Notes under the pieces: generated by a model
Database searches by the model: none
What the model saw: only the letters and a program-made list of their open reading frames with translations
Told to the model about the DNA's origin: nothing
Origin: an uncultured Clostridia bacterium
GTDB lineage: Bacteria > Bacillota > Clostridia > Christensenellales > UBA1242
Direction: 5' to 3'
Length of the DNA stretch: 64,000 bases
Assembly (NCBI GenBank): GCA_944383975.1
Contig: CALWRN010000049.1
Location: forward strand, 4,635-68,634
Made by a program: the position numbers and the translations under genes
Shown here: positions 33,352 to 44,785 of the stretch, piece by piece
Numbering within the stretch: position 1 is the stretch's first letter
Layout: every line of letters starts with the position of its first letter

Positions 33352-33768
33352 TTAAGTTATCAACACCACTGTCGTTCCTTTTGGTATTTGCGTGTTTTCT
33401 GGAGGAAGTTGCCTTAATATATATTGTCCTTCACCATCAAGTTCATAATCAAGTCCTATTTTTTTAAGTTCCCCAGCAGCATCTGCCAAACTAAGACCAA
33501 CCAAATCAGGCATTGAAACGTACTCTACCACAATACTTTCATCCTGCTTTTTCTCTCCTAGATATTCAAACAGCCTGCTGAAAATTATTTTCCCATAAGG
33601 AGCAGCGACAATGCTTCCATAATATACCCCTGCACTTGGCTCATCAACCATTATTAATAGCAAGTATTGTGGATTATCTGCTGGATAACTTCCAATAAAA
33701 CTTGAAATATATTTTCCTTGGGCAATTCCTCCAGTTTCTTTGTACTTTTGTGCTGTTCCTGTTTTTCC
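33352..33768 (-). CDS. C-terminal fragment of the split class B penicillin-binding protein (post-KTG transpeptidase strands plus one PASTA domain)
   Basis: The frame of the 103-aa ORF (33352..33663) stays open upstream to 33768. It reads GKTGTAQKYKETGGIAQGKYISSFIGSYPADNPQYLLLIMVDEPSAG.., then the PASTA-like MPDLVGLSLADAAGELKKIGLDYELDGEG. A TAA at 33772-33774 closes the frame at the junction. There is no start codon or RBS of its own at the junction. Confidence 0.85.
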   Translation of the reverse strand, partial: GKTGTAQKYKETGGIAQGKYISSFIGSYPADNPQYLLLIMVDEPSAGVYYGSIVAAPYGKIIFSRLFEYLGEKKQDESIVVEYVSMPDLVGLSLADAAGELKKIGLDYELDGEGQYILRQLPPENTQIPKGTTVVLIT

Positions 33769-33786
33769 CTTTTATTACACAATAAA
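33758..33786. repeat. Element junction next to the pbp 3' fragment: 11-bp direct repeat plus terminal inverted repeat
   Basis: DR cctgtttttcc at 33758-33768. IR tttcccttttattacacaataaa at 33764-33786. Confidence 0.8.
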
Positions 33787-33794
33787 TAGGATAA

Positions 33795-33828
33795 TTAAAA
33801 ATAAAAAACAACTTAAAAAGTTGTTTCA
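33795..33828 (-). terminator. Rho-independent terminator after the recombinase operon, just inside the element end
   Basis: 9-bp stem AAACAACTT/AAGTTGTTT starting at the recombinase stop codon, followed on the minus strand by a T-rich run. Confidence 0.55.
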
Positions 33829-35304
33829 TATTTTAAATTTATAGACTATTATTAAATCAATATGATTCTTATTAGTCATTTTATCAATGTATACTTTATT
33901 TATAGAAAGAGAGATTAACTTTAAACAATCTTTTGGCTTATCCTTTAATCTTTTTATTAAGTCTGTAAATTTATTTTCAAAATCAATAATTTTTGATTTT
34001 ATGTCTTTTTGTGAATTGATTACCTTCTCTTGCTCTTTAATTTCAAGCAAAAGTTCTCGCCCTTTATCACTAAAGGCACTTTCAGATATACCTTTATTAA
34101 ATAAATTTTCAAGCAGTTTAACATATTCTTCGTTTAGTGTTTGCAATTTTTCTTTGGCGATTTTTTCATCAAAAATTTTGCCATCAAACAATCTCTCTTT
34201 TAAAATCTTATAAAACTGATCTTTATTATTCTTATAATTTTCTATTACGTTTATTAAATCTTTATATAAAACATTCTTTAAACTTTTCTCTTTTATAGAA
34301 TAAATTCTTCTTTTATCATTTACATTTCTAAGGTAATAATCAGAATTATTGTTGTTATTTTTTGAATACAACAAATTTCTATTACTATTTCTATCAATAA
34401 TTATTTGCCCTAAATGCTCTATTCTTTTCTTGCTTCTTTTTTTTAAAGTTTCTTGTGTTTTATTAAATAAATCTTCACTAATTATTGCTAAATGCGTATT
34501 TTTTATCAATATTCTATCATTAGCATCATGTCTTATCCAGTTTAATGAATGACCACAATATTCATAATCTTTTGCTATCTCCCAAACTTTTGATGAATTC
34601 CATTCTCTTGCAGGATTTTTTTGAAGAGGTTTAAGCCCCAAAACTTTTGTTGCATAATAAGATCTTGTCGGTATATTTTCACTATTAAGTATTGATGCAA
34701 CTTCAGTGGTAGTCAAATTATAGTTTCCTATCAAATTAAATATTTTTTTTACGATGCATGCTGAAAAATTATCAATAATTTCTTTTCCATCATCATTGTA
34801 GTTATATCCAAATTTTGGATAATAATTTATATGTTTGGTTTGTGCATAATGTAATCTAGCACTTTTACATTTTCTCTTAAATTCATTTAAATAATATTCA
34901 TTTAAAAAGTTTTTTAAAACAATTATTTCGTCACTACAATTTTGTGCACTATCATATTTATCTGAAACTGAAATAACTCTAATGTTATTTTGTGGGAAAA
35001 TATTCTCTATAAGATTTCCTACTTTAAATAAAGACCTTCCTATTCTTGATATATCTTTAACTAGCAAAGTATCAAATACGCCTTTCTTCATATCGCAAAG
35101 TAATTGAGAAAACTGTGGTCTTTCTAAGTTAGAGCCAGAAAATCCATCATCAGAGTAAACGCGATATATTGTCAATCCTTTTTCTATTGCATATTCTGTC
35201 AATATTTCAATTTGATTTTCTATACTTTTTGATTCTGTATTTCCATATGATTTGTTTTCATCTTCTCTTGATAATCTAGCATAAATTGCTGCTACATTTT
35301 TCAT
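33826..35304 (-). CDS. Large serine recombinase B (resolvase/invertase catalytic domain, recombinase domain, Cys-less zinc-ribbon region, coiled coil)
   Basis: 492 aa. The N-terminus AAIYARLSRED..ENQ...YSDDGFSGSNLERPQF...LLVKDISRIGRS is the serine-recombinase catalytic domain. RBS AAGGAG is upstream. The start overlaps the previous gene by 29 nt. The C-terminal tail INKVYIDK..IDLIIVYKF resembles TnpX/TndX-type tails. Confidence 0.88.
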   Translation of the reverse strand: MKNVAAIYARLSREDENKSYGNTESKSIENQIEILTEYAIEKGLTIYRVYSDDGFSGSNLERPQFSQLLCDMKKGVFDTLLVKDISRIGRSLFKVGNLIENIFPQNNIRVISVSDKYDSAQNCSDEIIVLKNFLNEYYLNEFKRKCKSARLHYAQTKHINYYPKFGYNYNDDGKEIIDNFSACIVKKIFNLIGNYNLTTTEVASILNSENIPTRSYYATKVLGLKPLQKNPAREWNSSKVWEIAKDYEYCGHSLNWIRHDANDRILIKNTHLAIISEDLFNKTQETLKKRSKKRIEHLGQIIIDRNSNRNLLYSKNNNNNSDYYLRNVNDKRRIYSIKEKSLKNVLYKDLINVIENYKNNKDQFYKILKERLFDGKIFDEKIAKEKLQTLNEEYVKLLENLFNKGISESAFSDKGRELLLEIKEQEKVINSQKDIKSKIIDFENKFTDLIKRLKDKPKDCLKLISLSINKVYIDKMTNKNHIDLIIVYKFKI

Positions 35305-43083: not shown

Positions 43084-43117
43084 CTTTAATCCTCCCTTTT
43101 TGTAAACTTTCAATTAT

Positions 43118-43146
43118 ATTATAACATAACACAAATAAATATTGAT
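43118..43146 (-). promoter_or_regulatory. Candidate extended -10 promoter for the orphan/Y-pol/yolD operon
   Basis: The minus strand reads aTGtTATAAT (-10 at 43123-43118, TG at 43126-43125). The -35 is weak. Confidence 0.35.
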
Positions 43147-43256
43147 ATGTTTTAAATAGAATAATAATTTCTTTAATTTTAAAAGAAAGGTTTTTCTTTT
43201 TATATTTTATTAATAAAAAACACCTGCAAATCAACGAGTGATAAGACTTTTCTATT

Positions 43257-43294
43257 TTTATTGTTTATTAAAAGGGAAAGACACCTGTTTTTCC
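43257..43294. repeat. Element junction next to the pbp 5' fragment: terminal inverted repeat plus 11-bp direct repeat
   Basis: IR tttattgtttattaaaagggaaa at 43257-43279. Its reverse complement tttcccttttaataaacaataaa matches the other end at 21 of 23 positions. DR cctgtttttcc at 43284-43294. Confidence 0.8.
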
Positions 43295-44785
43295 ACCTAC
43301 GTTATAGCCTTCAACAAAAGTATATTTCCCTGTTTTATTTTCAGCGAACTCTAATAGTTGATTTATTATTTGAGATGTTTCCTTGCTAATCAATCCTTGT
43401 TTTGTAGATTGCGAAAATTCTTTTACTAATTGATTATCATTATAAATTGAATCTAAAATATGAGGGGTATTATAGTTTCCACCATTTACAATTGAAGCCA
43501 CTGCTGTTAATAGTTGTATTGGAGTCAGTGCAATTGCATGCCCAAAGCCCATTCTCGCAAGGTCAACATTTTTAACTGAAGATTTATCCATAAGTAATCC
43601 ACTTTGCTCTCCTGCAACATCAATTCCTGTTTTGCTTCCAAGTCCAAATTTCTGCATATATTCATAAAATTTATCTACTCCAAGTCTTAAGGCAAGATCC
43701 ATAAAGCAACAGTTACATGAGTTTGCAAATGCTTCTGTTAGGGTTTGAGAACCATGTCCAATTGTTTTCCAACATTTAATTTTTACGCCGTCAATTATTC
43801 TATATCCCGGGCAATAAAATCTATCGTTTAAACTTACAACACCCTCTTCAAGTGCCGCTGCTAATGTTAAAATTTTGAATGTAGAGCCTGGCTCATAAAT
43901 ATCTGTTGCTGGTTTAACCTTGCTTTGTTCAAATAATTCAGATAAATTATCTCTAGGAACATTGTTTAAATCAAAGCTTGGTTTTGTTGATAATGCAAGA
44001 ATTTCGCTTGTCTTTGCGTTTAAAATAATGCCAGAAACACTTTTTGCTTTCTGTTCTGTCATAATTTGCTCTAATACCTGTTCAACAATTAATTGAATTT
44101 TGCTATCAATAGTTAACTTTAAATCATCACCTTTAGTTGCAGGAATATAGTATCTTAATGCCCCGCCGATTTCTTTTCCTTGCAAATCGCTTTGAACATA
44201 ACTATAGCCATCTTCCCCTTTTAAATAATCGTTATAGTAGGCTTCTACGCCAGTTTGACCAACATTGTCAATACTGGTAAATCCTAAAATTTGAGTCAAT
44301 AAATTGCCATAAGTATAATATCTGTTAGCATTTTCTGCTAAATATACTCCATCAAGGTTTTCGTTATAAATTTTTTCTGCTATTTCACCATCAACCTGCA
44401 TTTTTATCAATACTTCACTTATATTTTTCTTTGAAATTTTTTCATAAACATCTTTGAAATCTAAATCAAGATAATTTGAAAGAACATAGGCAACTTTTGA
44501 TTGTTCTGTAACTTCTCTTGCCCTTACATATATATTATAAGTTGTATAACTTACAGATAATGTTGAACCTGTTTTATCATAAATTGTCCCACGAGGTGCA
44601 ACGATAGCCAAGTCTCTTGTCCATTGATCTGTTGCCCTCTCCTGAAGCGTCTTTCCTTTTATAATTTGAATAACAAACAATCTCACCATAAGTGAACAAA
44701 AAATAAAGGATATTACCAATAAAACTGCTAATATCCTTTTTTTTAATGAAAATAGTGTAAATGCTTTTTGCAAATCAGCCTCCAA
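43268..44785 (-). CDS. N-terminal fragment of the split class B penicillin-binding protein (TM anchor, dimerisation domain, transpeptidase through KTG)
   Basis: 505-aa ORF with TM helix ILAVLLVISFIFCSLMV, SxxK = STFK, SxN = SCN and KTG in ..YNVGGKTG. Four unrelated codons (VFPF) and TAA follow, inside the element end. The real start may be the TTG at 44773, 5 nt after GGAGG. Confidence 0.88.
   Translation of the reverse strand: MEADLQKAFTLFSLKKRILAVLLVISFIFCSLMVRLFVIQIIKGKTLQERATDQWTRDLAIVAPRGTIYDKTGSTLSVSYTTYNIYVRAREVTEQSKVAYVLSNYLDLDFKDVYEKISKKNISEVLIKMQVDGEIAEKIYNENLDGVYLAENANRYYTYGNLLTQILGFTSIDNVGQTGVEAYYNDYLKGEDGYSYVQSDLQGKEIGGALRYYIPATKGDDLKLTIDSKIQLIVEQVLEQIMTEQKAKSVSGIILNAKTSEILALSTKPSFDLNNVPRDNLSELFEQSKVKPATDIYEPGSTFKILTLAAALEEGVVSLNDRFYCPGYRIIDGVKIKCWKTIGHGSQTLTEAFANSCNCCFMDLALRLGVDKFYEYMQKFGLGSKTGIDVAGEQSGLLMDKSSVKNVDLARMGFGHAIALTPIQLLTAVASIVNGGNYNTPHILDSIYNDNQLVKEFSQSTKQGLISKETSQIINQLLEFAENKTGKYTFVEGYNVGGKTGVFPF

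Follow-up and report, generated by a model that had tools for sequence, protein, structure and literature searches.

The stretch of DNA analysed here, which we call the window, comprises 64,000 nucleotides of contig CALWRN010000049.1 from an uncultured Clostridia bacterium, and carries on its minus strand a gene for a class B penicillin-binding protein (PBP) that is split by an insert of 9,526 bp at the Gly codon of the KTG motif. Joining the two parts in silico at the short repeats that bound the insert gives a single in-frame open reading frame (ORF) of 635 amino acids (aa). On balance we favour the view that the insert is a domesticated intervening element of the kind represented by skin, and that the split pbp gene is rebuilt by excision of the element, probably in sporulation. 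The evidence that carries this view is that the split allele is the only one seen in the species, that the element has diverged in step with the chromosome, and that both halves of the gene and both recombinases of the element have been under purifying selection while the gene was split.

The split gene and its junctions

The N-terminal, host-derived part of the pbp gene (43284..44785, minus strand) encodes a transmembrane anchor, a pedestal or dimerisation domain, and a transpeptidase domain through STFK (the SxxK motif), SCN (SxN) and KTG, the set of features by which a class B PBP is recognised. It lies in a minus-strand ORF (43268..44785) of 505 aa if read from TTG, or 501 aa as called in public assemblies, which ends ...FVEGYNVGGKTG followed by four element-derived codons (VFPF) and TAA, up to 43268. 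The C-terminal part (33352..33757, minus strand) supplies the end of the transpeptidase domain (its last strands and helix), followed by a linker and a single PASTA domain. The frame in which the PASTA ORF (33352..33663) lies has no stop as far back as 33771; it reads K-GKTGTAQKYKETGGIAQGKYISSFIGSYPADNPQY... and is closed by a TAA at 33772-33774; there is no canonical start codon in the first 31 codons past the junction, and the ORF list for the window has a 99-103-aa ORF in this region. The structure of these two ORFs, and a joined ORF of about 635 aa with one PASTA domain, were the substance of the original prediction and held when the sequence was read again. In the joined protein Pfam places PBP_dimer at 61-206, Transpeptidase at 253-557 and the single PASTA at 581-634, with the Transpeptidase domain spanning the junction at about residue 501.

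With regard to family, the best relative of the joined protein among solved structures is SpoVD of C. difficile (PDB 7RCZ, 405 bits, the next PBP being at 233 bits), and both fragments are colinear with it in an alignment that goes straight through the junction, which answers the question, raised with the original prediction, of whether the two fragments belong to one PBP family. The joined protein and SpoVD share their architecture up to the end of the transpeptidase domain, the C..C..H cluster region included, and the gene has the same position downstream of rsmH and ftsL, but in the window pbp has no adjacent SEDS, murE or mraY gene. Among NCBIfam models the SpoVD equivalog TIGR02214 scores highest (599.5 bits across the whole protein, with 341 bits for the runner-up), although the curated cutoff is 688 bits, so that the earlier label “SpoVD-like” stands as the best available match and not as an assignment to the equivalog. 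We also note a cluster of cysteine and histidine residues, C-x..-C-W-..-H-G, at PBP residues ~325-345 (window 43700-43800; FYCPG...IKCWKTIGHG), which aligns with FTCTG...IKCWRHYRPHG of C. difficile SpoVD in the 7RCZ alignment and lies in a region that we take to be the Zn-binding site of C. difficile PBP2 and SpoVD.

Upstream of pbp is rsmH (45676..46608, minus strand; Methyltransf_5, 396 bits), and next to it, occupying the FtsL position and overlapping the start of pbp, a gene (44775..45470, minus strand) for a membrane protein of 231 aa, for which Pfam and NCBIfam give no family match. The context described earlier is secure with respect to rsmH, and the label “ftsL-like” comes down to position and a transmembrane segment. 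The pbp gene appears to be co-transcribed with rsmH. In the gap that separates rsmH from the ftsL-like gene (45471-45675) there are 205 nt of low-complexity sequence that is nearly all A/T, where related species have 39-47 nt. A comparison across species of sequence upstream of the ftsL-like/pbp operon, a region located by motif search in 4 of 15 loci, gave no promoter information.

The element itself (33758..43283, minus strand, its length being given with one core copy counted) has seven genes, all on the pbp strand. It agrees in three respects with the intervening elements of sporulation genes, being inside a host coding sequence between short direct repeats, with a joined ORF that is colinear with intact orthologues and a recombinase gene beside an att site. 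The repeat is an 11-bp core, GGAAAAACAGG on the coding strand, at attL (43284-43294, minus strand) and attR (33758-33768, minus strand), and there are exactly two copies in the window, one at each end of the insert, where 0.07 matches are expected and none of 100 shuffles reached two. The crossover dinucleotide is probably GG at 43285-43284, which is at the 3' edge of the core and forms the first two bases of the KTG Gly codon; it is placed there from the dyad centre of the reconstructed attP, TTATTGTGTAATAAAAGGGAAAAACA-GG-TGTCTTTCCCTTTTAATAAACAATAA, which read by eye is a near-perfect dyad with 23 of 26 positions matching around the non-palindromic central GG. A dyad around a non-palindromic centre is typical of serine-integrase sites, and the element-side arms of three related elements discussed below (L016, L031 and L036) resemble those of the window element. 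The junctions predicted for excision are ...GGCTATAACGTAGGTGGAAAAACAGGAACAGCACAAAAGTAC... for attB and ...GTGTAATAAAAGGGAAAAACAGGTGTCTTTCCCTTTTAATAAAC... for attP.

The split allele within the species

Four complete loci from different samples (L026-L029) have junctions identical to those of the window and the same seven genes, in elements of 9,519-9,533 bp, and two partial loci (L025 and L030), whose contigs break inside the element, also have the identical junctions. In the protein database the truncated PBP of this species forms a cluster of 15 distinct sequences, all 15 at 501 aa, and the closest full-length protein is 88% identical and from a sister species, with none higher. The split allele is thus the only one seen in this species. 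Contiguous orthologues are present in 17 related genomes, and the uninterrupted gene that the original prediction looked for in relatives does exist.

Synonymous divergence (dS) between the window and L027 is 0.038-0.074 for the flanking chromosomal genes, 0.066 for the N part of pbp, and 0.063 and 0.080 respectively for the genes of the two large serine recombinases of the element, LSR551 and LSR492. The values for the recombinase and polymerase genes match those for the flanking genes, and strain pairs rank in the same order whether flanks or element are compared. The element has thus diverged together with the chromosome, which means that the insertion predates the divergence of the strains and that the changes in the two pbp halves arose while the gene was split.

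Changes since the insertion were counted in five strains (the window and L026-L029), about 78% of changes being expected to be non-synonymous under neutrality. The N part of pbp has 30 synonymous and 5 non-synonymous changes (5/35; omega 0.045; P=7e-16) and the C part has 19 and 4 (4/23; omega 0.06; P=1e-9). By segment, there are 13 synonymous and 3 non-synonymous changes in the N-terminal and pedestal segment (omega 0.06), 17 and 2 in the transpeptidase before the break (omega 0.03), 9 and 2 in the 60-codon transpeptidase tail past the break (omega 0.06), and 10 and 2 in the linker and PASTA domain (omega 0.06), and none of the four is neutral (P from 4e-5 to 5e-10). The 31 codons past the junction and before any canonical start have 3 synonymous and 1 non-synonymous variable sites. 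No stop or frameshift is present in either half in the five strains and the catalytic motifs are intact. The split lineage and the intact sister L001 are equidistant from 7 outgroup species for both parts, with no acceleration. Both recombinase genes are also intact and under purifying selection (LSR551 omega 0.14, P=2e-9; LSR492 omega 0.24, P=2e-6). Pseudogenisation is rejected, and as judged from these sequence comparisons the data are difficult to account for without rejoining of the halves and use of the recombinases.

The recombination module, cargo and related elements

The two recombinase genes are adjacent and overlap by 29 nt. LSR551 (35276..36931, minus strand; 551 aa from TTG, 546 as called) has the complete set of three Pfam domains for a large serine recombinase, namely Resolvase, Recombinase and the Zn ribbon, and LSR492 (33826..35304, minus strand; 492 aa), whose gene ends 57 bp from the attR core, has the first two with no detectable Zn ribbon. 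The catalytic serine motifs are intact in the five strains (IYCRLSKED in LSR551, IYARLSRED in LSR492). Directly upstream of the pair is a 57-aa ORF (36939..37112, minus strand; 71 aa if read from 37154), which from its position is a candidate for a recombination directionality factor (RDF) or accessory protein, and for which there is no family match in Pfam, NCBIfam or PHROGs. Homologues with the motif RIY.ENG..RV.REF..GG.SILEQIIS.L.DLM are in the same position in L032, L036, L034 and L038, and the ORF is conserved throughout the recombinase family, including L034 and L038, which have other targets. As the small ORF is conserved with both recombinases, the recombination module is a triad.

The other four genes are separated from this operon by a terminator-like hairpin (37303..37332, minus strand). 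Nearest to it is the gene for a surface protein of 1,127 aa (37369..40752, minus strand) with DUF285/BspA-type repeats and a C-terminal transmembrane anchor, which we regard as variable cargo: its divergence is raised (omega 0.25, with 104 synonymous and 107 non-synonymous changes), its length is 1,125-1,130 aa among strains, and relatives carry other LRR_5 surface proteins as cargo. Then follow a small YolD-like protein (40845..41180, minus strand; a weak Pfam YolD match with E=0.006, below cutoff) and, overlapping it, a Y-family (DinB/UvrX-like) DNA polymerase (41167..42435, minus strand; Pfam IMS and IMS_C, phrog_1268 DNA polymerase) with omega 0.08 between strains. The same pair is present in L016, where the polymerase gene adjoins attL, and we take SPbeta to carry a yolD-uvrX pair as well. 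The gene adjoining attL in the window, orf222 (42445..43113, minus strand), has no significant family match in Pfam, NCBIfam, PHROGs or PADLOC. It is hypervariable between strains (212 and 222 aa; dS up to 0.44, against 0.01-0.08 for the remaining element and flanks), and this divergence suggests recombinational replacement at the attL end.

We considered whether the insert is a prophage and reject this: in a comparison of its genes with PHROGs only the integrases and the polymerase gave matches, with no phage structural, replication or transfer genes, and no relative was found among IMG/VR viral contigs scanned with the recombinase. Neither PADLOC nor PHROGs assigned a function to orf222, the 57-aa ORF or the surface protein. 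A promoter scan was uninformative at 27% GC (89 matches, 83 expected), and a lone CATACA-type motif, with a terminator downstream of it, was dismissed.

The LSR492 family comprises about 200 clusters at 37-62% identity, and in at least six other species the same pbp site is cut (L016, L031/L033, L036/L037, L041-L044, P0257 and P0259). In L031/L033, L036/L037 and L041-L044 the LSR492 relatives are 47-62% identical and the PBP C-terminal fragment follows directly, in the same host locus with Zn_peptidase_2 and GlyRS. In L016 (PBP 65% identical) the left junction reads ...GGKTG-VLPI-stop and is followed by the polymerase and YolD pair. The right junction of every relative regenerates GKTGTAQKY, and 17 intact orthologues share the target peptide F(V/I)EGY(N/D)VGGKTGTAQKY without variation, so that coding constraint fixes the GG crossover. 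The insertion is also polymorphic in other species, as the truncated P0257 and the full-length P0261 do not differ over 497 residues (100% identity), and the truncated P0259 (2 members) is 97.5% identical to the full-length P0266 (163 members).

Larger relatives of the element have as cargo a primase, a C5-methylase, LRR proteins and DUF3846. Their operon for the small ORF and the recombinases has a promoter, TTGACA-17-TATAAT, inside two to three palindromic operators, GACTATAATAGTC, and is faced by a divergent gene for a Cro/C1-type repressor; repressor and operators have been lost in the window element.

More distant members of the family integrate at other sites. In L034 (11494-11800; also in L035) a recombinase pair of 52% identity abuts non-pbp sequence beside a MatE gene, and a core resembling that of pbp is retained at the junction (AAAGACAGGGACGGC, ..KTGTA.. 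in translation); the site may be a secondary one, or else another target whose core is similar. In L016 the polymerase and YolD pair is directly followed (13318-15537) by a gene for a WYL/WCX-domain regulator and an oppositely oriented one for an LRR_5 protein. At the right junction of L036 (11640-11700) and L037 (8740-8800) the element side gives TAA ATG directly before GGC AAA ACA GG, and with this element-supplied ATG the C-fragment becomes a callable gene of 139 aa starting MGKTGTAQ, whereas the window has AAG there and no start.

An unrelated element was found in L117 (9316-14850; also in L116; human gut, 28% GC), where 5,523 bp lie within another SpoVD-like pbp (36% identical), the break being at ...HQGG|AVAAP..., some 45 residues beyond KTG. 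The element has a 12-bp core, CCAAGGAGGTGC, at each end, and when the two copies are joined an ORF of 712 aa is restored. Its single serine recombinase is TnpX/TndX-like, has 573 aa with DUF4368, and is about 31% identical to LSR492; the element also encodes a zeta toxin, a PHP-domain protein and a small protein with DUF6870. SpoVD-like genes are thus a recurrent landing site for elements with serine recombinases.

Other genes of the window may be noted briefly. Directly downstream of the pbp tail are two tandem paralogous Zn_peptidase_2 (YugP-like) genes (31854-33299, 237 aa each), of which relatives have one. A single ORF of 3,489 aa (16174-26643) adjoins an ABC-F gene, and giant ORFs of 3,104-4,342 aa are in the same position in L031 and L036. 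At 4835-8698 there is a 1,287-aa helicase-nuclease (DUF4011, AAA_11/12, MTES_1575 endonuclease) that matches the PADLOC candidate defence families PDC-S37 (571 bits) and Hhe (324 bits), and near it is a dGTPase-like HD protein (9565-10797).

Proposed excision, its alternatives and known systems

The course of events that we propose is as follows. The element would be a reduced, vertically inherited derivative of mobile elements with paired large serine recombinases, a family for which the target is the DNA for the invariant peptide GGKTGTAQK of a SpoVD-like class B PBP. The element is fixed in this species, so that in the inherited chromosome pbp is split and the complete transpeptidase cannot be made. 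When the enzyme is needed both recombinases would recombine attL with attR at the central GG, the 57-aa protein probably setting the direction, so as to release a 9.5-kb circle and restore the full-length ORF without a scar. The likeliest setting would be the terminally differentiating mother cell in sporulation, in which the PBP, acting as SpoVD, would make cortex, and the spore would retain the element.

What is known of SpoVD and of the host fits this proposal. C. difficile can grow without its dcw-encoded spoVD but needs the gene for cortex, and many Clostridia have no FtsI (PMC10693644), which explains how growing cells can tolerate a permanently split pbp. The genomes related to the host are of uncultured gut Clostridia, and the sister species UMGS2054 has 28% GC and an estimated genome of ~1.6 Mb. 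A close PBP homologue is named Candidatus Caccovivens, a genus in GTDB Christensenellales, family UBA1242, and a 2025 study of UBA1242 genomes (0.67-1.6 Mb) reported sporulation genes, which it called unexpected (PMC12306168). A DUF1540 protein is also encoded (31546..31824, plus strand; Pfam 27.6 bits, cutoff 22.1), at a distance of 1.5 kb from the end of pbp. DUF1540 ranks with the domains that best predict endospore formation (PMC2955703), and CdeA, a protein of the C. difficile exosporium, contains it (PMC7677010); the gene may be taken as an indirect, sporulation-associated hint on the lifestyle of the host.

Several points weigh against excision in sporulation. No classical spo gene was found within the 64-kb window, and the placement in UBA1242 is via one named homologue with 78% identity to the PBP of a relative. 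The score of the joined protein, as given above, is below the curated cutoff for the SpoVD equivalog. Inspection by eye of the sequence upstream of the recombination operon gave no convincing match to a sigma-E or sigma-K motif, and no sporulation-type promoter was identified there; the housekeeping-type promoter and Cro/C1-like repressor of the larger relatives are the logic of a mobile element and not of development. Since pbp is apparently co-transcribed with rsmH, growing cells probably make the truncated product. SpoVD of C. difficile has a part in asymmetric septation as well, before mother-cell-specific expression (PMC10693644), and excision confined to the mother cell would not supply that role. 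Lastly, a four-way degenerate scan for attB, attP, attL and attR of one metagenome collection, from which the species is apparently absent, gave no match and no excised junction.

Of the other explanations the one that deserves most attention, although we think it unlikely, is a reversible switch unconnected with sporulation, in which the element is excised and re-integrated in growing cells, or is excised in part of the population in response to stress (DNA damage or cell-wall stress, for instance), in the manner of the “active lysogeny” of the Listeria comK phage or of SpyCIM1 in mutL. The repressor and palindromic operators on a housekeeping-type promoter in the larger relatives are what such a switch would use, and the polymorphic insertions elsewhere mean that integration and loss do occur in the germ line; the SOS-type polymerase pair in the cargo and the position of pbp in the rsmH operon also point this way. 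However the window element has neither repressor nor operators, and a search within it for the Firmicute LexA box found none. As it has no replication genes a circle would be diluted and cured lineages would be expected, yet all 15 variants are split, and the nearest characterised relative of the PBP is sporulation-specific. We would put lower still the prospect that the twin-recombinase element is a heritable or reversible on/off switch of the sole dcw-encoded class B PBP in growing cells, apart from sporulation. If this were true, DNA rearrangement would control the mode of cell-wall synthesis and the availability of a beta-lactam target, in reduced-genome and possibly partner-dependent gut bacteria.

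It is also conceivable, and in our opinion distinctly doubtful, that the halves are never rejoined, the N-fragment acting by itself, perhaps as the scaffold of a SEDS glycosyltransferase or as its activator, and the C-fragment being separate or associated non-covalently. The truncated ORF does retain all three catalytic motifs, and the 139-aa C-fragment gene of L036/L037 and the 99-103-aa ORF of the window could provide a separate C-fragment. However there is no start codon for 31 codons past the junction of the window, yet the 60-codon tail is as constrained as the rest. The last core strands of the PBP fold belong to the transpeptidase domain, and it is unexpected that the transpeptidase part of an N-fragment without them should be the most constrained segment of all. 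The upkeep of two recombinases in a fixed element would also be left unexplained.

The original prediction had offered two alternatives, programmed excision and a dead gene, and it is the first that is favoured by the fixation, co-divergence, selection and maintained recombinases. That the insertion inactivated a dispensable PBP and left a decaying remnant we regard as very improbable. The loss of mobility and regulatory genes relative to the larger relatives would suit decay, as would the absence of an excision junction from the one collection scanned, in which the species is apparently lacking. Against this are the deficit of non-synonymous changes in both halves, the absence of stops, frameshifts or rate acceleration, and the constraint on the recombinases, and independent, very recent acquisition of the element by the strains is contradicted by the co-divergence. 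Finally an assembly or binning artefact, with a chimeric contig joining a mobile element to pbp, might be thought of for contigs that break inside the element, as in L025 and L030, but has practically no chance, being excluded by identical attL and attR in independent assemblies (different samples and assemblers), with the same architecture in other species.

Excision in sporulation, the reading that we prefer, would have precedents. Rebuilding of genes by serine-recombinase excision is already known as a kind, and elements excised in this way from mother-cell sporulation genes have been described for spsM, spoVFB, spoVR, gerE and yabG (PMC4191935, PMC5595907, PMC10747680). In the literature that we searched neither spoVD nor any other pbp gene is reported as host of an intervening element, in agreement with what was suspected in the original prediction. 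What is new here is the host gene, the target site in a catalytic motif, the module of two recombinases and a small ORF, and the host lineage.

The closest parallel is skin in sigK (recombinase SpoIVCA in B. subtilis, CD1231 with the RDF CD1234 in C. difficile), which is likewise a defective element within a coding sequence, with its recombinase at one end and a short flanking core, at which precise excision restores the ORF, and which is fixed and vertically inherited in some lineages. It differs in that the host gene is for a sigma factor and not a PBP, in having one recombinase and an RDF in place of two and the 57-aa ORF, and in that excision under sigma-factor control has been demonstrated, whereas the window element has no phage genes and is known from its sequence. 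SPbeta in spsM (SprA/SprB), vfbin in spoVFB, vrin in spoVR, gin in gerE and yin in yabG are likewise mobile or formerly mobile elements in host genes. SPbeta and its remnants, like the family of the window element, include active and reduced members, and gin, like the window element, is not prophage-like. The differences are that we have here a new target gene, a catalytic-motif codon conserved in the clade, and an uncultured host with a reduced genome.

Two other systems are comparable in part. CcrA and CcrB of SCCmec are also two adjacent large serine recombinases, one seemingly less complete, on an element without transfer genes, but the likeness is in layout only, as the window recombinases score 79.6 and 69.8 bits against an NCBIfam cutoff of 900; moreover insertion of SCC at the 3' end of rlmH leaves that gene intact, whereas the window element truly splits its target. 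In the heterocysts of Anabaena programmed excision of the fdxN, nifD and hupL elements restores genes in a terminally differentiated cell, and XisF, the serine recombinase of the fdxN element, requires small accessory proteins. Phylum and developmental programme are different there, and the XisF model gives only 30.6 bits here against a cutoff of 375.

The paired recombinases, with defined att sites and a small partner, are candidates for genome engineering and for studies of site recognition by two recombinases. Domestication can be seen within one family, with active, polymorphic elements under repressor control on the one hand, and on the other a fixed derivative stripped to a recombination module and cargo. 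A whole species in which the dcw-encoded class B PBP is split gives independent support for the view that this PBP is not used in vegetative division by many Clostridia (PMC10693644). If excision is confirmed, spoVD would join sigK, spsM, spoVFB, spoVR, gerE and yabG as a gene rebuilt by rearrangement, and would be the first such gene to encode a cell-wall synthase, and the first from an uncultured gut lineage, one whose genome is very small.

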